Of a DNA stretch of 25,629 nt, positions 2,754-20,776 are shown piece after piece. The DNA lies in NCBI GenBank assembly GCA_040830145.1, contig JBFOLQ010000318.1:1-25629 (forward strand), given 5' to 3'. The notes beneath the pieces were generated by a model that saw nothing but the letters and a program-made list of their open reading frames with translations, had not been told where the DNA came from and searched no databases. Made by a program: the position numbers and the translations under genes. Positions within the stretch are counted from its first letter, which is position 1; each line of letters starts with the position of its first letter. Source of the stretch: Flavobacteriaceae bacterium (GTDB taxonomy: Bacteria > Bacteroidota > Bacteroidia > Flavobacteriales > Flavobacteriaceae).

Positions 2754-2911
2754 TTTTATTTCTACAGCGACTTCTGGCGGTGTGCATCTTCTTCTGCATT
2801 TTTCTTGGGATACCCATTGCCCTTGAATCCTGGTGGCACCTTCTATGGACCTGGTTAATGGCACTTGCCACCATGTACTACTTAGATCAACATATCAAAC
2901 CATCAAATTGA
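2750..2911 (+). CDS. Small two-TM membrane protein, 53 aa, not in the track (MILFLQRLLAVCIFFCIFLGIPIALESWWHLLWTWLMALATMYYLDQHIKPSN)
   Basis: Translated by hand. ATGA overlap with the upstream stop. Two hydrophobic helices. Confidence 0.65.
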   Translation: MILFLQRLLAVCIFFCIFLGIPIALESWWHLLWTWLMALATMYYLDQHIKPSN

Positions 2912-2935
2912 CATTAACTTCAAAATTCAGATACA

Positions 2936-3142
2936 ATGATTCAACAACAAAGAAAACCTCTTGTAAAGAAAGTTATGGAGACCTTTGGAAAGGTTACTGA
3001 AACGGATGATTCCCAAGCGGTGACCACCAAGGCCATCCTGGGCAACGAAGAAATTTCCAGACTAAACAAACTGGCAGTGGAAGAAGGGGCGACCATAGCT
3101 TTAAAACGAAGTGGTGCTGGGATAAATATTTCGGTACGGTAA
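2936..3142 (+). CDS. Hypothetical small protein, 68 aa
   Basis: ORF in operon orientation, AT-rich upstream region, followed by a hairpin. Confidence 0.7.
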   Translation: MIQQQRKPLVKKVMETFGKVTETDDSQAVTTKAILGNEEISRLNKLAVEEGATIALKRSGAGINISVR

Positions 3143-3148
3143 AAAAGC

Positions 3149-3168
3149 TCCCGGCCTTCGGGCCGGGA
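3149..3168. terminator. GC-rich hairpin with a TTCG loop (terminator-like; U-tract on the minus strand)
   Basis: TCCCGGCC-ttcg-GGCCGGGA preceded by AAAAAA. Confidence 0.55.
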
Positions 3169-3299
3169 CTTCCAAAAGGATGGTACGCAAGACCACTACA
3201 GAAGGCTATTACCTGTTAGGCAATACCTTCCTGATCAAGTTCAAACACCTTACTCCTACAAACAATTTCCTAATCATTTTAAACTGACCCAGGATACCT

Positions 3300-6200
3300 A
3301 TGCCTAGAATTCCCGATGATATCAAGGCCCAAATACTAGACAGGGCCAGCCTTCATAACGTATTGAAGGAATACCATGGTCTCCATAAAAAGAAAGGGGC
3401 AAGTTACGTGATGGACTGCCCCAAGTGTGGTGTTAAGGACAAGCTGGAGTATTCAGAGGCCAAGGAAATAGCCAAATGCTTTAAGTGCGATATTGGTGTA
3501 AAGACACCCGCCAACTACCTTCAGAAGTTCCAGGGGTTGACCTATGGACAATCCCTAGAGGAGTTAGCACGTATAGAGGGGGTGGTTATTCCCAAGGGAA
3601 AACTGAACGAAAAGCGCAAGGCTTCACACCAAGTACCATATATCCAGGATTTTTTGGGGGGTTCTGGGCTTAACACAGGTGATATCACCGGCCCAGTATA
3701 TGTAGATGAAGAAACACGAAAGGAGGTGCCATCCTACGTGTCAGGTACGGTGGATACGGCCTTTGAGATTGTCCCGGGTGACGATGTGATCATACATTAT
3801 TATGATTTGGATGGAAGGCCCATGCAATACTACCGGAAGGACAAAAAAGGCAACCCGGTAGGAAAAAAACGAAACTTCTATCGGGTACGGTACCAGAATC
3901 CGGAACTGCACAAGGACAAGAATGACAACCCCATAAAATATCGTTCCCCCTTCGGCAGTGATACCAAGATTTATATTAACAAGTGGATCCGGGAAAAATA
4001 CAAGAAGAGTAGTAAGATACAGACGCTGTATATCCAAGAAGGTGAAAAAAAAGCGGACAAGGCGACCAAGCACGGCCTTATCTCAGTGGGCATCATGGGC
4101 ATACACAACATTGCCTACCAAAAACGTTTGCCGGTAGAGTTTGAGGCCATCATTAAACGTTGTCAGGTTGAGAATGTGGTGTTTGTCCTGGATTCTGATT
4201 GGGACCAATTGGGAAACCGCATTGATAGTAACCACTCCGCAGACCAACGCCCCAAAAGTTTTTTTAGGGCCGTGGTGAATTTCCGTAACCACTTCTATGC
4301 CTTTACCAATAATGACATATACCTGAACATCTATTTTGGGTATGTAAAGCCCAACCCCGAAAAAGACAAGGGTATAGATGACCTTTTGGTCAACTCGCTC
4401 CGGAATAAGGAGACAGAGCTTAAGCCCCTTTGCGAGGCGGCCCTCAAAGAACCCAAGGGTGATGCCACCTGGTTGCAGTTTCACAACATAACTTCCATGA
4501 GCGAATATAAGATCATGGGGTTTTGGCATTTGGGGAATGTAGATGATTTTACGGCCCACTACCGTGAGCGGTTACGTACCCTGCCCAAATTTAGGTACGG
4601 TAGTATTGAATGGCGGTACAACGATAAGGGCGCCCGTGAGTTGGCACAGCCCTTGATGCCACAGGATACCTTTTGGAACGAGGATATCAGAAAAGATGAC
4701 CACGGCCGTATCATCAGTAAAAAATTAAGCTTTAACCATCACCGGTGCTACACTTTTTTAAGGAACCGCGGGTACTATCGCCTGGGCCAGCCCAACAATA
4801 GTTTTATCTGGATAAAGATTGAGGGAAACATCGTCACCCGGGTAGAGCCATATCAGATCAAGGACTTTGTCATTGATTTTACTGAGCAATTAAATAAGGA
4901 GGACGTGCTCAATATGCTCTACCGTGGGGGACGTATGTACTTAGGGCCAGAAAGCTTGGGAAACCTTCATTTTACAAACCTGGCACTCCATTCGGCCAGT
5001 AAGAACACCCAATACATCTATTTCAATAAAAATTTCTTTAAGATAACTGATGAGGGCATAGAGCTAGAGGAGATAAAGAACCTTAATGGCCAGGTGTGGC
5101 GCGACAACATTATTGACTTTTCACCCATAAAGACAGAACCGCTGTTGAGCGAGGTACATCAGATCAATGAAAATGATATCCGGGCCAATGAGAATCTGGC
5201 CAATTTTAAGGGGGAGTACTCTGTGGGTTTTTCTGAAAGTGGAAATCGCTGTCACTTTCTCAGCTTTTTGCTCAATACAAGCACCTTTTTTGGGAAGGAC
5301 AAGAGCTTTGAGGATGCCACTTTTGAAGAGCGCTTTGAGACTACCCGTCATTTACTGTCAAAACTTACCGCCTTTGGTTATATGTTGCACAGGTACCGTA
5401 ATGCAGCTGTTGAAAAGGCCGTTGTGGGCATGGATGGCACCATGAGTGAAGTGGGCAAAAGCAATGGTAGAAGCGGCAAAAGTCTTTTTGGTCTGGCTGT
5501 AGAGCAATTGATACCCACAGTGACCATTCCCGGGAAAAAGCGAAATCTGCTAGAGGACCAATTTTTGTTCCAGGAAGTGGACCAACGTACAGCTGCCATT
5601 TTCTTTGACGATGTACGTTCAAATTTTGATTTTGAGTTTTTGTTTCCCTACATCACCGGTAAGTTCACCTTGGAGAAAAAGGGAATGGGCAAAATGACCC
5701 TGCCCCGTGATTTTGTCCAAAAATTCTACATCAGCACAAACCATGCCCTACGTGGTGATGGGGGAAGCTTTGAGGACCGCCAGTTTATGCTGGGCTTCAG
5801 TAATTGGTACAATGCCAGGCACAAGCCCATTGATGACTTCAAGGTCATGTTTTTTGACGAATGGGACGAAACCCAATGGAACCTCTTCTATAATCTGGCA
5901 GCCCTATGCCTTCACCTGTACTTTAAACACGGCTTAATACCGGCGCCCAGTGAAAAGCTTATCAATCGTAAGCTGCGCCAGGAAATGGGCGAACAGTTTC
6001 TGGATTGGGCAGAGGAATATTTCAGCAACCCCCAGAACGTACAATGCCAGATTTATAAAGACACCATGTACCAAGCTACCCGCGGGGAACAGGATCACAT
6101 GCAGCATGGCGATGGTTTTGTGACCAAATACCCAGGGCAGCGAAGGTTTACCCCCATACAGATTTTTAAGACCAAAGTAAAGCTCTATTGCAAGTACAAG

Positions 6201-6338
6201 GGCTTTGACTTTAACCCCTCTAAGAACGGGGGCGATATCAAAAAGGGCGGCAAGGAATACCTGGCCGTTTTTATTCCGGAAGAAGACTATGAACAAATTA
6301 AGGCAGAGCTACCGGTTGAGGATGAGCTGCCCATTTAA
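3300..6338 (+). CDS. Phage DNA primase-helicase (Zn finger + TOPRIM + SF3-type P-loop helicase)
   Basis: CPKC..CFKC zinc finger, TOPRIM motifs IQEGEKKAD, DSDWD and KGIDD, Walker A SNGRSGKS and Walker B AIFFDDV. Confidence 0.9.
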   Translation: MPRIPDDIKAQILDRASLHNVLKEYHGLHKKKGASYVMDCPKCGVKDKLEYSEAKEIAKCFKCDIGVKTPANYLQKFQGLTYGQSLEELARIEGVVIPKGKLNEKRKASHQVPYIQDFLGGSGLNTGDITGPVYVDEETRKEVPSYVSGTVDTAFEIVPGDDVIIHYYDLDGRPMQYYRKDKKGNPVGKKRNFYRVRYQNPELHKDKNDNPIKYRSPFGSDTKIYINKWIREKYKKSSKIQTLYIQEGEKKADKATKHGLISVGIMGIHNIAYQKRLPVEFEAIIKRCQVENVVFVLDSDWDQLGNRIDSNHSADQRPKSFFRAVVNFRNHFYAFTNNDIYLNIYFGYVKPNPEKDKGIDDLLVNSLRNKETELKPLCEAALKEPKGDATWLQFHNITSMSEYKIMGFWHLGNVDDFTAHYRERLRTLPKFRYGSIEWRYNDKGARELAQPLMPQDTFWNEDIRKDDHGRIISKKLSFNHHRCYTFLRNRGYYRLGQPNNSFIWIKIEGNIVTRVEPYQIKDFVIDFTEQLNKEDVLNMLYRGGRMYLGPESLGNLHFTNLALHSASKNTQYIYFNKNFFKITDEGIELEEIKNLNGQVWRDNIIDFSPIKTEPLLSEVHQINENDIRANENLANFKGEYSVGFSESGNRCHFLSFLLNTSTFFGKDKSFEDATFEERFETTRHLLSKLTAFGYMLHRYRNAAVEKAVVGMDGTMSEVGKSNGRSGKSLFGLAVEQLIPTVTIPGKKRNLLEDQFLFQEVDQRTAAIFFDDVRSNFDFEFLFPYITGKFTLEKKGMGKMTLPRDFVQKFYISTNHALRGDGGSFEDRQFMLGFSNWYNARHKPIDDFKVMFFDEWDETQWNLFYNLAALCLHLYFKHGLIPAPSEKLINRKLRQEMGEQFLDWAEEYFSNPQNVQCQIYKDTMYQATRGEQDHMQHGDGFVTKYPGQRRFTPIQIFKTKVKLYCKYKGFDFNPSKNGGDIKKGGKEYLAVFIPEEDYEQIKAELPVEDELPI

Positions 6339-6347
6339 AACTTAAGC

Positions 6348-6497
6348 ATGGAAGAAGACTTCTTAGAGGCTGTTAGAGCGATGCGCAAGGCCCAGAACAG
6401 CTATTTCACCACTAGAAAACGAGGGGCTTTGATTAGGAGCAAACAATTGGAAAAAAAGGTTGATGCCATGATAGATGCGCATGACAAAACAAAATGA
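6348..6497 (+). CDS. Small phage protein, 49 aa, not in the track (MEEDFLEAVRAMRKAQNSYFTTRKRGALIRSKQLEKKVDAMIDAHDKTK)
   Basis: Translated by hand. ATGA overlap with 6494. The MR.AQ..YF.TR..SK.LEK.VD pattern is recalled from Bacteroidota phages. Confidence 0.75.
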   Translation: MEEDFLEAVRAMRKAQNSYFTTRKRGALIRSKQLEKKVDAMIDAHDKTK

Positions 6498-14859: not shown

Positions 14860-15050
14860 CAGCAATTGTAATCACCATTATCAATATTGCCTTGGTAGGG
14901 TTGAATTTTCTCATCTACCGGCGCACCAAAAAAGTAGGGGTGAACCCCAATTTACATTCACTTCCAGTGCATACCCAAGATGGTCATGGGGTGGTCATAG
15001 AGAACAAACAGGGAAAACCTGTGGCAGAATTTAAAAAAGAACTACAATGA
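14856..15050 (+). CDS. Small single-TM protein
   Basis: N-terminal hydrophobic anchor followed by RRTKK. ATGA overlaps on both sides. Confidence 0.65.
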   Translation: MTAIVITIINIALVGLNFLIYRRTKKVGVNPNLHSLPVHTQDGHGVVIENKQGKPVAEFKKELQ

Positions 15051-17170
15051 AAAAACTGGTACTATGTATTGTTTTGGGCCTATCAATGCTTGCGGGCCAT
15101 GGGCAGTTTAAACTAGATGCCCTAGAGTGGCAGGGAAAGGTCACTACCACCGTACGGGATGCCTATGTGGTGCCCACTGGTGGGGTATACCTCATATGGC
15201 ATACCAATGCCGCCCAATTTGAATATGCCCAGGATGACCAAGTGTGGAAGGCCTTGGCACTTAGTGCGGCGGACCGCACCAAACTCAACAACATTCTGAT
15301 TACCCAAAACGTGGACCTAGATCAGTTAGAAACTGATGTGGCCGGGAAAGAAGATGCATTGGGCAACCCCAGCGCAGATGGCCAAGTACTTTCTAGTAGT
15401 GCTGCAGGGGTCCGTAGTTGGGTAGACCCTTCAGGGGGAGGTGGTACTGATGACCAAACCATTTCCTTGGTCGGAAGCACATTGACCCTTGAGAATGGAG
15501 GTACGGTTGACCTATCAGGATTCCTTGATAATACCGATGGGCAGACCATTACAGATTTGAGCCTTTCAGGCAATACCATGAGTATTTCATTGAGCGGTGG
15601 TAACACGGAAACTGTTGATCTTTCTGGCCTTGGAGGCTCCGGTAACGTATCTGCATCCTCGGACTTTGGGGCAGATAAAAGAGTAATAATATCCAAAGGA
15701 ACTGGTAAAGAGGTTGAGGCTAGTTCTGTTACCGTCAATGGCAACAACTTATTGGTCCCTGGAAATATAAGTGCTTCATATGCTAACCTGTCAAATGACT
15801 TAAACTTCGTCAGCAGCGACCCGCTCCGGAGGGATATAAATGGAGTGAATAGACTTGCGGCCAGGTACCTTGACCTGAACCCCACCACTGATTTTTCAGG
15901 AGAAACGGAGGGGGATATAGGGTTCCACTCAACCACAAAAAAATTTAGAGGTTATGACGGAACGTCCTGGAAGGATTTTGCCCAGGATGCGGATGTGGTA
16001 AAGCTGACAGGGGACCAAGGAGTAGACGGAAAAAAGACTTTTTTTGAGGCGGTACGTATTGACCAAAGTCAAGGCTCCAACAACGTAAACCCGTCGAAAC
16101 TTTTGGTTCGGCTTGGATCCTCCAATTGGGCCGGGGTTGCCCCCGATATAGGCTATGGCGGCTTTTACTTCAATAATGACGGTACATTTAGGCTTATGCG
16201 GTCCACTGATATTGCTAGCACTACCGTAAATCTTGGTATAAATTGGAATGCCATGACCACAAGTAAAAATTTGATTTTTAGTGACAGTGACATTACTTGG
16301 GGTGGCCAAAGTCTTTTGGGGGGGTCGGGTGGCGGCTTGACAACCGAGCAATCCGAGCGTATCAATAATGCTGGACATTACAAGATTTTTAACAAGACAG
16401 GTAACAATGCCATTAGCCAGGAGGATTTTTACCCCACTTCCGTAGGTGACCGTGGAAAAAAGGGAAAAATATACCATGGGGCTACTGTGACGGATACTAT
16501 CCAGGTGGCCGACTTTCCGGGTATCGGCGATATTTTGCCAATATACCCAAATGGTCACGGTGGTAAGATTGTCATTGATTCAAACGAAAGTACAGTGTTC
16601 AAAAATTCCAGTGGTGAAACTGGGGACGAAATTACATTGAGTTTACATGCTCCAGTAATCTTGGAAAAGACTGCTAATGATACTATTTCGGTATGGAGCA
16701 AAGGGTTTACTTTGGGCACACAAGTTACTGAGCTATATACTGTAGCAAATTGGCTATCTACTTCAAGCTATGAAGCTGATTCCAACACCGGGCTTGGTAC
16801 TGTGGGTGTCACAGTGGCCAGTGAAACAACGATAGTGGGGGAAGGTTCATATTCGGTTGCCATAACATCCACTGACGGTGCTTCCGATAGGATGGAGGTT
16901 GACATTACCCTTGAAGCCAACACAACATATGAAATAAAATTTTATGGGGCAGAGGGCGCTAATGCAAACCTTACCACAAATGCATTTGTTGGATTTACAA
17001 ATAGTAGCCCATCTTGGACCCCTGCCATTTCAAATTCCAATGGAACTATGCAGGAATTTACGGCCATTTTGACCACTGATGGCACTACTTCACAAAAACT
17101 GAGATTTTACAATAATGGCACCGCCGCCACAACCGTATATGTAGGTGGTCTTTCAATCACAAAGCAATGA
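15047..17170 (+). CDS. Signal-peptide-bearing adhesin/tail-fibre-like protein with TDDQT repeats and a C-terminal CBM-like beta-sandwich
   Basis: MKKLVLCIVLGLSMLAGHG|Q signal peptide, TDDQT.SL.G..L.L..G.TVDLS repeats (about 15446-15627), fibre-like DADVVKLTGDQ.V.GKKTF motif, and a C-terminal LEANTTYEIKFY..QEFT..LRFY domain. Confidence 0.65.
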   Translation: MKKLVLCIVLGLSMLAGHGQFKLDALEWQGKVTTTVRDAYVVPTGGVYLIWHTNAAQFEYAQDDQVWKALALSAADRTKLNNILITQNVDLDQLETDVAGKEDALGNPSADGQVLSSSAAGVRSWVDPSGGGGTDDQTISLVGSTLTLENGGTVDLSGFLDNTDGQTITDLSLSGNTMSISLSGGNTETVDLSGLGGSGNVSASSDFGADKRVIISKGTGKEVEASSVTVNGNNLLVPGNISASYANLSNDLNFVSSDPLRRDINGVNRLAARYLDLNPTTDFSGETEGDIGFHSTTKKFRGYDGTSWKDFAQDADVVKLTGDQGVDGKKTFFEAVRIDQSQGSNNVNPSKLLVRLGSSNWAGVAPDIGYGGFYFNNDGTFRLMRSTDIASTTVNLGINWNAMTTSKNLIFSDSDITWGGQSLLGGSGGGLTTEQSERINNAGHYKIFNKTGNNAISQEDFYPTSVGDRGKKGKIYHGATVTDTIQVADFPGIGDILPIYPNGHGGKIVIDSNESTVFKNSSGETGDEITLSLHAPVILEKTANDTISVWSKGFTLGTQVTELYTVANWLSTSSYEADSNTGLGTVGVTVASETTIVGEGSYSVAITSTDGASDRMEVDITLEANTTYEIKFYGAEGANANLTTNAFVGFTNSSPSWTPAISNSNGTMQEFTAILTTDGTTSQKLRFYNNGTAATTVYVGGLSITKQ

Positions 17171-18702
17171 GGCGAATAATTCAATTCTTTCTGGTATTTC
17201 CCTTTTTGCTACATGGGCAAATTGTACTTGACAATGAATATGCATTTCATGGCGCAGTAGGCTATGGCCGTAATGCAACGGTAGGTCAACCTGCCAGGAC
17301 AATATACAAGGTCACAAACTTAAATGCGAGCGGCCCAGGAAGTTTTGCCGATGCCGTCAGTGCTTCAAATAGGGATGTAATTTTTGATGTTGCTGGCACA
17401 ATAACTGTTCCCAATATAAATTCATCGGCCCCTAACATAGTGATTCACGGCCAAACTGCCTATAGAAATGGCGGTCAGGGAATCACTTTAAAAACGGACG
17501 GTACCACTGGGGCACAGGTTCTTTATATGTCTGGAGACCATGTAGCGATTCGCCATGTACGCATTAGGCGCGGCACGGGGCCTGTAAATGAATCATCGGG
17601 TGATTGTCTCAATGTCACTGGTTCTAATGTTATTCTTGACCACGTAAGTGTAAGCTGGGGAACCGACGAAAATATAGGAGGGCAGACCACCAAAAACTTT
17701 ACAATGCAACATTGCATAAGCAGTGAGGCTCTTTATTTATCGACTCATATATATACAAATGATTCCAATCACGATGAATATCAAACTGGACATAGTAAAG
17801 GCGCATTATGGGGCAATGCAAATGACAAGCTAACGATTTACAATTCCATTTTTAGTCATAATGACGGGAGAAACCCCCAGATAGTAAGTGATGGAAGGTT
17901 TGAACTGGTCAATGTGATTTCTGCGCTAAACCAAGCGTACCACATTGGGAGTTTAAAAGGCATCACTGCCAATGGCGCGGAATTTAACGTTGTAAAATGT
18001 CTTACGGTCCCTGGGGCCGGATATAAAAATGGCCGCCATGAGATACACACATCAGACCATTCAACGGCGAAGTTTTATTTACAAGGAAACATAGGCCATA
18101 AACGGACAAGCGACTCTCAGTCGGAGTGGGACGCTATCGGAAACAATACCAGTGACATTCCTACCAGTGCACAAGCCACTACTCCATTTACAACCAATAT
18201 GAGCGGAGACTACGCGGCTCTCCCTGATGCTAATGAATTGCTTAGTGCTGACAACATGGCCCAAATGGGGGCCTATCTATTTAGGGACTCTGTGGACGAA
18301 ACTATTATAGATGAAATCATTAATGGCGGTAATACCACGGCCTTAAATGTGTCTGATGCGGCCGGGTATGATGGTCCAAATTATGTCGGTCAGGCGACCT
18401 ATTACGATTTTGTCAATTCTGTGACAGAAGCCGGGGGCTGGCCAACATTAAGTGGGATGTCATCGGTGCCTGTAGATGTAGATAATGACGGAATAGAGGA
18501 TAATTTTGAAGTGGCCCATGGTATTTCGGATGCTACGGCCACCAAAGTTAACTGGACATTTGGCGATGTCACAATAACCAACAATGCCGGCTACACCAAT
18601 TTTCAAATGTACATGATGTTTTTGGCAGGGGACTTCGGAGGCCAGGGCGAGACCAATTCAAATAATGAAGAAGAATTTTTTAACCTAATCATTGACCACT
18701 GA
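17167..18702 (+). CDS. PL1-family pectate-lyase-like beta-helix enzyme with a signal peptide
   Basis: AFHGAVGYG, IYKVTNLNASGPGSF, VIFDVAGTI, ILDHVSVSWGTDEN, FSHNDGRNP (catalytic Arg motif) and DVDNDGIEDNFE. Signal MRRIIQFFLVFPFLLHG|Q. Confidence 0.85.
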   Translation: MRRIIQFFLVFPFLLHGQIVLDNEYAFHGAVGYGRNATVGQPARTIYKVTNLNASGPGSFADAVSASNRDVIFDVAGTITVPNINSSAPNIVIHGQTAYRNGGQGITLKTDGTTGAQVLYMSGDHVAIRHVRIRRGTGPVNESSGDCLNVTGSNVILDHVSVSWGTDENIGGQTTKNFTMQHCISSEALYLSTHIYTNDSNHDEYQTGHSKGALWGNANDKLTIYNSIFSHNDGRNPQIVSDGRFELVNVISALNQAYHIGSLKGITANGAEFNVVKCLTVPGAGYKNGRHEIHTSDHSTAKFYLQGNIGHKRTSDSQSEWDAIGNNTSDIPTSAQATTPFTTNMSGDYAALPDANELLSADNMAQMGAYLFRDSVDETIIDEIINGGNTTALNVSDAAGYDGPNYVGQATYYDFVNSVTEAGGWPTLSGMSSVPVDVDNDGIEDNFEVAHGISDATATKVNWTFGDVTITNNAGYTNFQMYMMFLAGDFGGQGETNSNNEEEFFNLIIDH

Positions 18703-18740: not shown

Positions 18741-18989
18741 ATGGTGAAAATTAAAGAAGGAAAGACCGAGTTTGCCGGAATTGAAGTTGAAAACCGTGTG
18801 ATACGGAGATTCCTGCGCACACTTGCCGCAATTGTAATTTTGTTTGTCTTGGGCCTTACAGGTCACAGTCGGGCAACTACCGGTGACTGGAATTTTACCG
18901 CTGATGATGGCGTGGTAATTGGGTTGTCTCTTGGGCTTTTGTTGACGATTGAAGGAGTACGTGCATTTGTAACCAGAAAACTAAGCTGA
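18741..18989 (+). CDS. Holin-like two-TM protein
   Basis: Two hydrophobic helices and a basic C-terminus. First gene of the lysis cluster. Confidence 0.55.
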   Translation: MVKIKEGKTEFAGIEVENRVIRRFLRTLAAIVILFVLGLTGHSRATTGDWNFTADDGVVIGLSLGLLLTIEGVRAFVTRKLS

Positions 18990-19060
18990 TGGTATTCACG
19001 ACCGTTGTATTGTTTGTGGTGGTTTTGGGCATGGCCATAGCTAAACTAAGGCGTATTTAA
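18989..19060 (+). CDS. 23-aa single-TM micropeptide, not in the track (MVFTTVVLFVVVLGMAIAKLRRI)
   Basis: Starts in a TGATG overlap, and its TAA ends one base before the next GTG. Clean TM plus basic tail. Confidence 0.55.
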   Translation: MVFTTVVLFVVVLGMAIAKLRRI

Positions 19061-19603
19061 GTGGTGTTCAAGATTCCCAATTGGGTGGATTTCATAATCC
19101 AAAAACAATTGTATTTGCTTGTTCCCCTGGCATTATTAACTGGGGCAAATTACTATAAGGACTATGAAATAAAATCCCACAAGGCAGAAATGGCTTATCT
19201 GCGCAAAGCCAATGAAATATTGGTCAATCAGCAAAATTATGCCGGTCTTGACATTAACAAACTGGAGCTTTCCGTATGGAAGAAGCTTAAGATAGGTGGT
19301 GATTTTGTGATGGTGTGGCTATCGAGTAAGTATGACAGCCGGTTTTTGCAAATGTTCGGGATTCCAGCAAATAATTACCTGGGGCAGACAGACTATCATA
19401 TTTGGCCGGAAAAACTGGCCGATGAATTTTGGGAAGAGGATATGCAGGTTGCGCTTACCGGTGAGGATCTATACGGCATAGGAAATAGCCCAGACGGGAA
19501 AAAGCTATTGATACGAAAATGGCGGGTGATTGAAGGCAACAGTGTTTATGTGATGGGGATGGCCATAGATAAAGATGAAGCTAAAGATTGGTTTAAAAAA
19601 TGA
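19061..19603 (+). CDS. Single-TM protein with a C-terminal PAS domain, in the lysis cassette
   Basis: TM LYLLVPLALLTGANYY, a coiled linker, and the PAS_4-like signature FGIPANNYLGQTDYHIWPEKLADEFWEEDMQVALTGE...KWRV...VMGMAID. Confidence 0.78.
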   Translation: MVFKIPNWVDFIIQKQLYLLVPLALLTGANYYKDYEIKSHKAEMAYLRKANEILVNQQNYAGLDINKLELSVWKKLKIGGDFVMVWLSSKYDSRFLQMFGIPANNYLGQTDYHIWPEKLADEFWEEDMQVALTGEDLYGIGNSPDGKKLLIRKWRVIEGNSVYVMGMAIDKDEAKDWFKK

Positions 19604-20031
19604 AGACAGTATATATCATCCGAGACACTATTGGAAGAAAACAGAGCACGGGTGCTCATTTGGTCATCAATGAAAAAGGTGATGTGGTCTATGATGGTCA
19701 AATCTTAGAACTTGGTTGGCTCAATAACAGGCGAAACATTAGTTGTATCCCAGAAGGGATATACGAATTAAGATTAGAACGGTCCCCAAAATTCAAAAGA
19801 AAACTTTGGGAAGCATACGGCGTGCCAAATAGGTCTGAGACAAAATTTCACAACGGGGTTACATATAAACATTCCAATGGATGCTTTATTCCAGGAAAAA
19901 CCCGCTTTGATTTAAATGCAGACAACCTTGACGATATGATTAACAGCAGGGATGCTCTTGAAGAGTTTCATGATGCAATGGGGGAAGATACCAGGGCAAG
20001 ACTTGTGATTATAAACGATAGGCAAAATTGA
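19600..20031 (+). CDS. DUF5675-like endolysin candidate (YkuD-like His/Cys motif)
   Basis: LELGWLNNRRNISCIPEGIYEL, SPKF, VPNRS and FHNG....SNGC. ATGA overlap with the PAS gene. Confidence 0.8.
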   Translation: MKTVYIIRDTIGRKQSTGAHLVINEKGDVVYDGQILELGWLNNRRNISCIPEGIYELRLERSPKFKRKLWEAYGVPNRSETKFHNGVTYKHSNGCFIPGKTRFDLNADNLDDMINSRDALEEFHDAMGEDTRARLVIINDRQN

Positions 20032-20326: not shown

Positions 20327-20776
20327 ATGGTAAAAAATATTTTCATATCCATATTGATCCTTAGCTTTCTGGGGAGTTGTAGGATGCTCCGAACGGCGGA
20401 CAAGCACAAAACTGCAACTGAGGCAACTGAGCAGATAGTGACCAAAACAGCCAGAAAGGGCGATACCGTAACATTCTACGTACCAAGAGTGCGGTATAAG
20501 GATACAACGATTAGAACTGTCAATAGAGTGGGCAGCGTCATTGAAACACGCTATGACCAAGATGGTAATATTGACCTTATCAACTGCCTTACTTCGACGG
20601 TTGATGAAATGAGGGAAGAAAACCGTCGATTGTTAGAGGCGGTGTCTCAAAAGAATGTTGAATCTGAAAAGGAAACCCAAGGAATCAATATTAATATAAT
20701 AGCGATTGCCGCAATGGTCTTGATTATGTGGTTTCTTGACAAACGTATTCCTAGCGCAAAGGGGCCAACAAACTAA
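20327..20776 (+). CDS. Unimolecular spanin (u-spanin) candidate
   Basis: N-terminal lipobox FLGSC plus a C-terminal TM (IIAIAAMVLIMWFL). Lies after the endolysin. Confidence 0.78.
   Translation: MVKNIFISILILSFLGSCRMLRTADKHKTATEATEQIVTKTARKGDTVTFYVPRVRYKDTTIRTVNRVGSVIETRYDQDGNIDLINCLTSTVDEMREENRRLLEAVSQKNVESEKETQGININIIAIAAMVLIMWFLDKRIPSAKGPTN

Follow-up and report, generated by a model that had tools for sequence, protein, structure and literature searches.

The 180-aa protein encoded at positions 19061-19603 of the window (the whole 25,629-nucleotide stretch of Flavobacteriaceae bacterium DNA that was analysed) is probably a signal-responsive component, so far undescribed, of the system that sets the time of host-cell bursting. 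The reading we prefer, which we judge to have an even chance of being correct, is that this PAS protein serves as an accessory sensor component at the holin step of lysis, a function assigned from the position of its gene. Lysis timing determines phage burst size and fitness. To our knowledge, the lysis of Bacteroidota phages is almost unstudied, and the well-understood cases of regulated timing (T4 RI/RIII-T, lambda S107, P1 LydB and phiKZ gp143) employ dedicated protein partners only, with no generic small-molecule sensor fold among them. With a PAS module connected to the holin step, phages could read a chemical signal at the final step of infection. Searches of the literature brought up no relevant case of a PAS protein within a lysis cassette. 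The features of the cassette are presented in Table 1.

Table 1. Features of the predicted lysis cassette, with the parts of the PAS protein, in window coordinates.
Feature	Position	Strand	Basis
Holin-like small membrane protein, 82 aa; TM segments 20-36 and 54-70, basic termini (N-in/C-in by charge)	18741..18989	+	hydropathy
Single-TMD peptide, 23 aa; TGATG overlap with the 82-aa gene	18989..19060	+	ORF list, hydropathy
Membrane-anchored coiled-coil PAS protein, 180 aa	19061..19603	+	phmmer, PHROG, Pfam of relatives, AF2
N-terminal motif M-V-F-K-I-P-N-W and short hydrophobic anchor (residues about 11-32)	19061..19156	+	homologue consensus, hydropathy
Linker helix (residues 33-66) that extends the anchor helix; coiled coil predicted	19157..19258	+	AF2
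PAS domain (residues 68-172)	19262..19576	+	AF2 fold, structure matches, conservation, VqmA alignment
DUF5675 protein, 143 aa, YkuD (L,D-transpeptidase/carboxypeptidase) fold in the model; candidate endolysin	19600..20031	+	Pfam, AF2
Soluble protein inside the cassette, 96 aa	20035..20325	+	hydropathy, family search
Unimolecular-spanin-like protein, 149 aa; lipobox LGSC (Cys18), C-terminal TMD 120-136; last gene of the + operon	20327..20776	+	

The open reading frame is considered a real gene because phmmer, run against 1.8 billion representatives, returned 279 hits at E<=1e-3, with full-length homologues of 150-240 aa at E values down to 5e-27, and because the product matches phrog_10199 (E 3.5e-7). 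A word-index homologue search recovered the protein itself alone, and a search of 400 genomes of the phylum yielded PAS repeats of long sensor proteins alone, with no short prophage homologue. In the public gene call, the frame starts at TTG 19115 and encodes 162 aa. The GTG at 19061 is preferable as the start, given that similarity with the homologues reaches N-terminally to residue 4-7 of the 180-aa product. This GTG directly follows the TAA of the 23-aa frame, and the 3' end of the gene shares an ATGA overlap with the DUF5675 frame, which supports the translational coupling to the endolysin gene claimed by the first-pass annotation. A scan of the cassette for sigma-70 promoters and terminators, a design that excludes Bacteroidota promoters, found nothing above the shuffled expectation.

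The protein had been described from its letters as a weak single transmembrane segment with a basic N-terminal side, followed by a coiled linker and a PAS_4-like domain with no output domain, and most of this description is accurate. The anchor has a Kyte-Doolittle mean of 1.6 over 15 residues and fails the 17-residue threshold. The basic N-terminal side is marginal in the 180-aa protein itself, where the charges (K4, D10 and K15) give a net +1, and is strongly basic in its close homologues, with which an [FI]-P-x-W motif is shared (A4 consensus). In the AF2 model, the linker is part of a single unbroken helix spanning residues 8-66. Pfam detected no HisKA, HATPase, GGDEF or HTH domain, and the C-terminus lies 8 residues beyond the PAS domain. 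The TM2-leucine zipper-PAS module of ArcB aligns over residues 7-179, i.e., nearly the entire protein. According to the charge rule, the family shows opposite orientations: close homologues look N-in, and distant homologues look N-out/C-in, the PAS domain therefore being predicted to be cytoplasmic in the latter.

The AF2 model (pLDDT 93.7) presents a canonical PAS fold, in which strands 71-78, 81-87, 137-142, 148-158 and 161-170, with helices between them, form the five-stranded antiparallel PAS sheet flanked by helices (beta-beta-alpha-alpha-alpha-alpha-beta-beta-beta). The best 50 PDB structure matches are all PAS domains (highest Z 13.2, rmsd about 2 A over about 97 residues), and Foldseek matched LOV, FixL and BvgS at probability 1.00. 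The domain's Pfam assignment is less clear: PAS_4 (PF08448) is matched with an E of 0.0063 and 17.2 bits, below the gathering threshold of 23.1, and 25 of 52 family members match it at E<=0.01 (best 2.9e-14). Hence, the protein is a divergent PAS member by sequence and, on the strength of the model, a clear one by fold.

Family-conserved residues of the domain comprise W73, K75, Y91, G108, D111, A120, F123, D127, K153 and G166. A direct phmmer search of the 180-aa protein against PDB sequences gave chance matches alone. The family profile, in turn, matched the PAS domain of VqmA with an E of 6e-8, as against 1e-3 for the next solved PAS domain, and VqmA of phage VP882 aligned with the family in hhalign with an E of 7e-5. 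These profile comparisons place the domain in the same PAS subfamily as the ligand-binding PAS of VqmA. In the alignment, K75, Y91, F123, D127 and K153 correspond to VqmA K23, Y36, F67, D71 and K101, and these positions (F or Y at 123) are 92-100% conserved in the family. F67 and K101 of VqmA are essential for DPO binding (bioRxiv 10.1101/2019.12.19.881847); their counterparts are F or Y in 50 of 52 members and K in 51 of 52, respectively. The counterpart of VqmA F99, I151, is V or I in 46 of 52 members, i.e., F99 is not conserved. Since 290 PAS repeats, from 79 long sensor proteins of host type, conserve the counterparts of these pocket residues as well, they may in part be structural hallmarks of the subfamily rather than proof of a ligand, and we accordingly toned down a reading of the K/Y/F/D/K set as proof of a VqmA-specific pocket.

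The neighbouring genes support the placement of the PAS gene in a lysis cassette between a holin-like gene and the putative endolysin gene. The holin-like label given earlier to the upstream gene agrees with the two hydrophobic segments of its 82-aa product, which has no Pfam or PHROG match and is related to an 81-aa gene located upstream of the PAS homologue in context L003 (BLASTP, E 2.4e-4). One-TMD peptides comparable to the 23-aa peptide, of 33-41 aa, are found in L003, L058 and phage phi18:3 (gp089). Downstream of the DUF5675 gene, the 96-aa protein has no TM segment and no family match in Pfam or PHROG; analogues of the unimolecular-spanin-like protein, each a lipoprotein or signal-peptide protein with a C-terminal TMD, are located downstream in L004, L005, L058 and phi18:3.

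The gene following the PAS gene had been called the endolysin outright. Its product matches Pfam PF18925 (E 3.8e-22) and is not annotated as an endolysin; the fold of the model speaks for that role. The AF2 model of the DUF5675 protein (pLDDT 92.8) has YkuD-fold enzymes as its best 20 PDB matches, with Z between 6 and 11.9 before values fall to 3.5; these matches include Pgp2 (Z 11.9), Csd6 (Z 10.8) and L,D-transpeptidases (Z 7-10). H84 and C95 are invariant across 33 DUF5675 homologues. Given the predicted fold and this invariant His/Cys pair, the protein is a credible candidate endolysin, predicted to be a peptidoglycan L,D-peptidase. A C82-like lysin was proposed earlier for DUF5675 (bioRxiv 10.64898/2026.04.11.717860), and the model adds structural support for the family as a peptidoglycan L,D-peptidase lysin. 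Taken together, the genes suggest a cassette model for Bacteroidota phages, consisting of a 2-TMD holin-like gene, a mini-peptide, a PAS anchor protein, a YkuD-fold endolysin and a unimolecular-spanin-like gene.

The link with lysis extends to the homologues, which occupy this position between holin-like and endolysin genes in many unrelated Bacteroidota phages, marine ones among them. In nine of the ten Bacteroidota-type contexts examined, an endolysin-type gene lies within two genes or about 1.5 kb of the PAS homologue, and at least five unrelated enzyme families are represented. DUF5675 adjoins the PAS gene in this window, in L005-7 and in L021; elsewhere the neighbour is Peptidase_M15_3/phrog_894 (L003), PG_binding_1 with phrog_181 (L019/20), Amidase_3 (L008), GH108 (phi18:3), a lysozyme (Nekkels_1 and phi19:1) or GH19, whose gene overlaps the PAS gene in the crAss-like phage phi14:2. 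A lack of linkage between homologues and lysis genes had been named in advance as evidence against a role in lysis, and the opposite was found. The family is carried by prophages and by the cultured Cellulophaga phages phi18:3, phi14:2, phi19:1 and Nekkels. Virulent Cellulophaga phages are among its carriers, making the restriction to temperate phages in the first-pass annotation unnecessary. In phi18:3 and phi14:2, neighbouring genes encode structural proteins confirmed by MS, and the PAS gene product is not among these; on the basis of these data, the PAS-family product is not a virion protein.

In the mechanism we propose, a membrane-tethered and probably dimeric PAS sensor would be produced from one tightly coupled late operon that also encodes the holin-like protein, the 23-aa peptide and the endolysin. 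A small molecule or cofactor in the PAS pocket may alter helix packing, as in ArcB-type TM-helix-PAS modules. Because the protein lacks both an enzymatic and a DNA-binding output, its signal would leave through protein-protein contacts made by the anchor and the coiled coil, within the membrane or at its surface, and the changed packing would shift the triggering of the holin-like protein or of the membrane, tuning lysis time to cell chemistry. The effect could go in either direction, i.e., a delay of lysis (antiholin-like) or an advance (trigger-like). Control of the holin step by a soluble domain has precedents in T4 T/RI and phiKZ gp142/gp143 (PMC12894885), and in the ATGA-coupled pair LysF1a (2-TMD)/LysF1b (1-TMD) (PMC13056207). 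A more specific version, with a diffusible small molecule (an autoinducer-like heteroaromatic compound as in VqmA, or a redox or energy metabolite of the host) as ligand of the PAS domain and direct gating of the holin step by that domain, is considered unlikely. A lysis-inhibition-like system had been suggested earlier; no support was found for lysis inhibition in the T4 style, by sensing of superinfection.

The main rival explanation, to which we give only a minor share of the probability, is that the PAS protein is itself the holin or a co-holin of class III-like design, with one TMD and the PAS domain as a built-in timer, the 2-TMD protein being its partner or regulator, as in the LysF1b/LysF1a pair. 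A single anchor with a globular soluble domain is also the design of T4 T and phiKZ gp142, and the order of a 2-TMD gene and then a coupled 1-TMD gene is that of LysF1a/LysF1b, in which the 1-TMD partner is the more important. Every partner endolysin examined, including the DUF5675 protein of the window, which has no hydrophobic N-terminus, is without a signal or SAR segment, and these enzymes hence need a large-hole holin. The PAS gene has no small TMD gene adjacent to it in phi14:2 and L008, so that the PAS protein, as the sole membrane protein beside the endolysin, occupies the holin slot there. The protein is also found with many unrelated endolysins and small membrane proteins, which would be expected of an autonomous holin. 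The small membrane genes upstream of it fall into at least three or four families without detectable similarity (including phrog_16200 and phrog_15401), a diversity that argues against one specific partner and is unexpected for an antiholin that recognises one holin.

The comparison of related DUF5675 cassettes points the other way, since these omit or replace the PAS gene and keep the small 2-TMD gene. In L059, where DUF5675 is 64% identical, a 74-aa 2-TMD gene, DUF5675 and a 115-aa gene follow each other and the PAS slot is empty; in L058 (70% identical), the slot is filled by a non-homologous 216-aa double-anchored coiled-coil protein. The PAS gene is therefore facultative, being present only in some otherwise similar cassettes, which is the pattern of an antiholin or regulator. 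Further points against a holin are the hydrophobic segment, which is weak and spans 12-17 residues in the 180-aa protein and its close relatives, and the lack of similarity to Phage_holin_T.

Slightly less probable than a holin, though by little, is a passenger of the late operon. It would either mimic host sensor-kinase PAS domains and, in host takeover, heterodimerise with host signalling proteins or titrate a ligand from them, or serve in superinfection exclusion or conversion. The closest counterparts of the domain are repeats in multi-PAS histidine kinases of host type, and its PAS core is related to those in Bacteroidota multi-PAS kinases. Phages commonly encode short PAS proteins that stand alone (1142 members, mostly viral, in one Atlas cluster), and the facultative nature of the gene would suit a passenger, as would the location of some relatives outside recognisable lysis cassettes, i.e., a tandem pair in the bacterial-looking context L023 and relatives near tRNA and PhoH genes in Brevundimonas jumbo phages. 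However, the slot between holin-like gene and endolysin recurs across phage families with different endolysins, and the start/stop overlaps leave no room for independent expression. The presence of the family in virulent phages indicates it is not a moron expressed in lysogeny, and a reading as a defence system was rejected since PADLOC gave no match.

A spanin-type inner-membrane component, with an N-in anchor, a periplasmic coiled coil and a C-terminal domain touching an outer-membrane partner, is very improbable: although the basic N-flank, anchor and long helix of close homologues recall the topology of an Rz-type i-spanin, and one family member weakly matches DUF2570 (E 0.0058), the family match and the partner genes tell against it, given a unimolecular-spanin-like gene is already present here as in L004, L005, L058 and phi18:3, no separate or embedded o-spanin lipoprotein gene is paired with the PAS gene (the sole lipobox gene, 20327-20776, has its own C-terminal TMD), the PAS gene is upstream rather than downstream of the endolysin, and VqmA/ArcB-like PAS domains are of the cytoplasmic type, in keeping with the N-out/C-in appearance of distant homologues.

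The preferred reading, an accessory sensor at the holin step, may be set against known systems. Mu releasin gp25 (DUF2730) likewise belongs to a lysis cassette and is a small protein with a single TMD and a cytoplasmic portion. Unlike releasin, the protein studied here has a PAS domain, and its partner DUF5675 lacks any SAR or signal segment that could be released; as there is also no DUF2730 match at E<=1, this relationship was discarded.

Class III holins comprise T4 gpt (IIIa), whose antiholins are RI and RIII, and phiKZ gp142 (IIIb), which is regulated by gp143 (PMC12894885). The PAS protein resembles them in having one membrane segment and a large soluble domain, in its location in or near the lysis cassette and in its size (T has 218 aa), and in T4 T and phiKZ gp142 it is the soluble domain that sets lysis timing. 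It differs from T4 T in its canonical PAS fold, of the type that senses small molecules or cofactors, and in the separate 2-TMD holin-like gene alongside. Kinship with T4 T was rejected: there is no match to PF11031 (Phage_holin_T), which T4 T itself matches at 1.5e-118, hhalign of the PAS family against T gives a probability of 0.2%, and T is absent among the best structural matches of the model (PDB/Foldseek). The first-pass annotation had drawn the parallel through a PAS-related GAF domain in the periplasmic part of T, for which our searches found no literature pairing 'holin T' with 'GAF'.

LysF1a (2-TMD) and LysF1b (1-TMD) of cluster F1 mycobacteriophages form a holin-like pair with ATGA coupling; both shape lysis timing, and they stand outside the classical holin classes (PMC13056207). 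LysF1b differs from the PAS protein in its length of 124 aa, in its highly charged helical tail and in the lack of a globular sensor domain. In addition, the host is mycobacterial and the gene order relative to the endolysin differs from that of the PAS cassette.

ArcB, FixL and LOV-HK kinases share the TM-helix-PAS sensor module. In contrast with these histidine kinases, the PAS protein has no HisKA/HATPase or other output, totals 180 aa, and is phage-encoded within a lysis cassette.

Finally, VqmA and VqmA_Phage (VP882) are PAS-LuxR receptors of the autoinducer DPO and represent the nearest solved PAS domain by sequence, with Z 11.2 to 7dwm. In VP882, a phage PAS receptor links a small molecule to the lysis decision. 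The PAS protein differs in that it has no LuxR-type HTH, is anchored to the membrane by its N-terminal helix and has an aliphatic counterpart of F99; VqmA acts transcriptionally at the lysis-lysogeny switch, whereas the PAS protein would act post-translationally at the lysis step. Since cultured and tractable Cellulophaga phages, one of them crAss-like, carry the family, a PAS sensor at the holin step is directly testable. If the more specific version, with a PAS-bound small molecule gating the holin step, were true, marine Bacteroidota phages, a crAss-like phage among them, would choose the moment of bursting post-translationally, minute by minute, from a chemical cue, by means of a ligand-gated lysis clock mechanistically unlike both T4 lysis inhibition and the transcriptional VqmA_Phage switch.

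The 180-aa protein encoded in the phage lysis cassette is an anchored PAS protein. It matches Pfam PAS_4 below threshold (17.2 bits vs. a cut-off of 23.1), and 25 of 52 aligned family members match PAS_4, with a best E-value of 2.9e-14. An AlphaFold2 model computed from the alignment of the family reaches a mean pLDDT of 93.7 and consists of one unbroken helix (residues 8-66) followed by strand-strand-helices-strand-strand-strand, the order of PAS domains. Running the AlphaFold and Foldseek fold check proposed in the first-pass annotation against the PDB returned the PAS domains of LOV, FixL and BvgS with probability 1.00. An exhaustive structural alignment against 48,161 chains yielded only PAS domains among its top 50 matches (Z up to 13.2), with an rmsd of ~2 Å across ~97 residues. 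Among Swiss-Prot models, ArcB aligned over residues 7-179 (i.e., membrane helix, leucine zipper and PAS domain together). Since the family search found no kinase, cyclase or DNA-binding domain in the protein, the annotation was right in describing an anchor, a linker and a PAS domain with no output domain.

The GTG start directly follows the TAA of the one-helix ORF, which in turn overlaps the stop of the 82-aa gene, and the PAS-gene stop overlaps the ATG of the DUF5675 gene (ATGA). The operon, on the forward strand, continues with a 96-aa and a 149-aa gene, beyond which lie opposite-strand genes. The public gene call starts at TTG 19115 and yields 162 aa, which halves the hydrophobic segment and drops a conserved N-terminal [FI]-P-x-W motif (19061-19115). 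Given that phmmer alignments with homologues begin at residue 4-7 and that they share this motif, GTG is the better start. In an exhaustive search, phmmer compared the protein with 1.8 billion representatives and returned 279 matches at E<=1e-3. About 75 of these are proteins of 130-250 aa aligned full length (E down to 5e-27), and the others include many long multi-PAS sensor proteins, matched in the PAS core only, several times each. Among PHROGs, the 180-aa protein matches phrog_10199 (E 3.5e-7), of which gp090 of the cultured Cellulophaga phage phi18:3 is a member (E 2.5e-102). Judged by these sequence matches, the ORF represents a real gene family.

Features of the window cassette and of related loci (L handles: other contigs with PAS-gene homologues or, for L058, a close DUF5675 relative; phi and Nekkels_1: cultured Cellulophaga phages)
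Locus	Feature or gene order	Coordinates	Strand
Window	Fibre-like (707 aa) and pectate-lyase-like (511 aa) proteins, hydrophobic signal-like N-termini	15047-18702	
Window	82-aa holin-like gene, two hydrophobic segments, basic ends	18741-18989	
Window	23-aa single-helix peptide, between holin-like and PAS genes	18989-19060	+
Window	PAS gene, 180 aa, GTG start	19061-19603	+
Window	DUF5675 protein (E 3.8e-22)	19600-20031	
Window	149 aa, last gene of operon, lipobox LGSC and C-terminal membrane helix	20327-20776	+
L058	216-aa slot protein, membrane helices at both ends, long coiled coil, Cys-rich stretch	2854-3504	
L023	Tandem PAS-anchor paralogues, 186 and 188 aa	2934-4067	
L015-L018	PAS gene, apparently anchorless; coiled-coil protein with C-terminal anchor; 417-492-aa multi-helix protein	~3300-6400 each	
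L005-7 (metagenomic, prophage-like)	Tail-fibre-size gene; 68-aa and 82-aa membrane genes; PAS; overlapping DUF5675; 135-aa gene with C-terminal helix; integrase		
L003/L004	33-aa and 81-aa membrane genes; PAS; Peptidase_M15_3/phrog_894 endolysin; lipoprotein		
L019/L020	119-aa three-helix gene; PAS; overlapping PG_binding_1/phrog_181 endolysin (E 2.4e-32); 210-aa anchored gene		
L008	PAS; 97-aa gene; Amidase_3		
L021	Three-helix 123-aa gene; PAS; 136-aa anchored coiled coil; convergent DUF5675		
phi18:3	MS-proven structural genes; 91-aa and 33-aa membrane genes; gp090 (PAS); five-helix membrane protein; GH108 gp092		
phi14:2 (crAss-like)	Structural genes; gp090; gp089 (annotated PAS); overlapping GH19 gp088; anchored gp087		
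Nekkels_1, phi19:1	Pectate lyase; two membrane genes; PAS homologue; lysozyme ~1.5 kb downstream		

The PAS gene is facultative, as is seen in contigs carrying the closest DUF5675 relatives. In L059, where the endolysin is 64% identical and lies inside a 164-kb bacterial contig, the cassette comprises a beta-helix depolymerase, a 74-aa two-helix gene, DUF5675 and a 115-aa anchored gene, and the PAS slot is empty. In L058 (endolysin 70% identical), the slot holds a protein ATGA-coupled to the endolysin that has neither similarity to the PAS protein nor a family match. Lysis of the host presumably still takes place with both cassettes, so the slot protein is taken as accessory rather than core, and mainly for this absence or replacement a regulator is ranked above the holin. 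We consider the chances about even that the PAS protein is an accessory sensor at the holin step. That it is itself a holin or co-holin is doubtful given these two cassettes, yet this alternative is kept alive by the upstream membrane genes of the homologues, which belong to several unrelated families (arguing against a classical holin-specific antiholin), and by phi14:2 and L008, in which no small membrane gene adjoins the PAS gene.

The survey of homologue neighbourhoods, a check proposed in the first-pass annotation, found the linkage to lysis genes: in nine of ten Bacteroidota-type contexts a peptidoglycan hydrolase lies within two genes or 1.5 kb of the PAS gene, and these hydrolases come from at least five unrelated enzyme families. 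Among the exceptions, L023 is a bacterial-looking contig (its other genes include MFS, Na/Ca exchanger and ClpS) that shows no lysis gene, and Brevundimonas jumbo phages carry a PAS relative near tRNA genes and PhoH. The four alphaproteobacterial-type viral contigs L015-L018 may represent a different lysis-linked type; the multi-helix protein of L016 has a weak PG_binding_1/endolysin-PHROG match. We regard it as improbable that the gene is a non-lysis passenger.

As to the other genes of the cassette, the 82-aa gene has a relative in L003, the 81-aa gene that precedes the PAS homologue there. The cassettes of L003, phi18:3 (gp089) and L058 also contain, in varying order, one-helix peptides of 33-41 aa. 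To our knowledge, DUF5675 is a family with no established function. All top 20 PDB matches of its model (pLDDT 92.8) have the YkuD fold and are peptidoglycan L,D-peptidases or transpeptidases: Pgp2 (Z 11.9) and Csd6 (Z 10.8) lead, ahead of Ldt enzymes, Tlde1a and DpaA, and the next match falls to Z 3.5. His84 and Cys95 are invariant among 33 homologues, and a hydrophobic-segment scan found no signal or SAR segment. We thus infer, with good support, that the protein is an endolysin, and the model lends structural support to the view that DUF5675 proteins serve as endolysins in Bacteroidota phages. A 2026 preprint makes the same C82-like reading of such a protein from structure, giving no activity for that protein (bioRxiv 10.64898/2026.04.11.717860). 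The 149-aa protein has the predicted layout of a unimolecular spanin; with such a gene present and no o-spanin partner for the PAS protein, a spanin-type role for the latter (i.e., as i-spanin) is highly improbable. What probability remains belongs to something not thought of. Genes like the 149-aa one close the cassettes of L004, L005, L058 and phi18:3, the L058 counterpart having a plain signal peptide cut before Gln in place of a lipobox. The pectate-lyase-like protein matches phrog_27797 (E 6e-88), and Nekkels_1, too, has a pectate lyase ahead of its cassette.

A search of all PDB sequences with the family profile ranked the VqmA PAS domain of Vibrio cholerae first (E 6e-8), followed among solved PAS domains by BvgS (1e-3). 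The hhalign comparison with VqmA of phage VP882 gave E 7e-5 over 107 columns, and the phage VqmA-DPO structure matches the model at Z 11.2. The most conserved family residues, K75 (52/52), Y91 (48/52, F in the other four), F/Y123 (50/52), D127 (51/52) and K153 (51/52), align with VqmA K23, Y36, F67, D71 and K101; VqmA F99 is unmatched, the family having I/V151. All five VqmA residues have been probed as DPO-site residues, and DPO binding needs F67 and K101 (bioRxiv 10.1101/2019.12.19.881847). Among the phmmer matches, 79 long sensor proteins keep the same five in a total of 290 PAS repeats. On this conservation, these residues define a large PAS subfamily, to which the protein belongs, rather than a VqmA-specific pocket. 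The domain likely has a ligand pocket.

Topology matters for the mechanism, and the short homologues form two groups by N-terminal layout. Some 25 of them, close relatives of the window protein among them, have a basic N-terminal part of 20-55 residues and a short hydrophobic segment (12-19 residues), which by the positive-inside rule suggests N-in. About 22 have a segment of 20-26 residues at the extreme N-terminus, with no basic residues before it and several after, which suggests N-out/C-in with a cytoplasmic PAS domain. The basic N-terminal side described in the first-pass annotation is strong in the close relatives and only marginal in the window protein (net +1), whose orientation is ambiguous by flanking charge; likeness to the cytoplasmic PAS modules of VqmA and ArcB favours a cytoplasmic domain. 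As an accessory sensor, the protein would sit in or on the inner membrane and dimerise via its long helix; when its PAS pocket takes up a small molecule or a cofactor, helix packing would change, and this would act on the holin-like protein or the membrane and shift the triggering time.

Our literature search found no description of a PAS protein in a phage lysis cassette, the phi14:2 record being annotated merely as "PAS domain-containing protein". A relation to T4 holin T was rejected, with no PF11031 match, an hhalign probability of 0.2% and T absent among the structural matches. The papers searched did not pair T with the GAF domain that the first-pass annotation ascribes to it. Mu releasin was likewise rejected, the protein having no DUF2730 match and the cassette no SAR endolysin. 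The protein would belong with single-anchor lysis proteins bearing regulatory soluble domains, and the window instance comes from a Bacteroidota branch with cultured members. The functionally relevant precedents are class III holins whose soluble domain has a regulatory role. In T4 T this domain is periplasmic; in phiKZ gp142 it is cytoplasmic and serves as the binding site of gp143, a non-essential regulator (PMC12894885). A further precedent is the mycobacteriophage pair of LysF1a, a two-helix protein of ~80 aa, and the ATGA-coupled LysF1b that follows it, a one-helix N-out/C-in protein, both of which are needed for proper lysis timing (PMC13056207).
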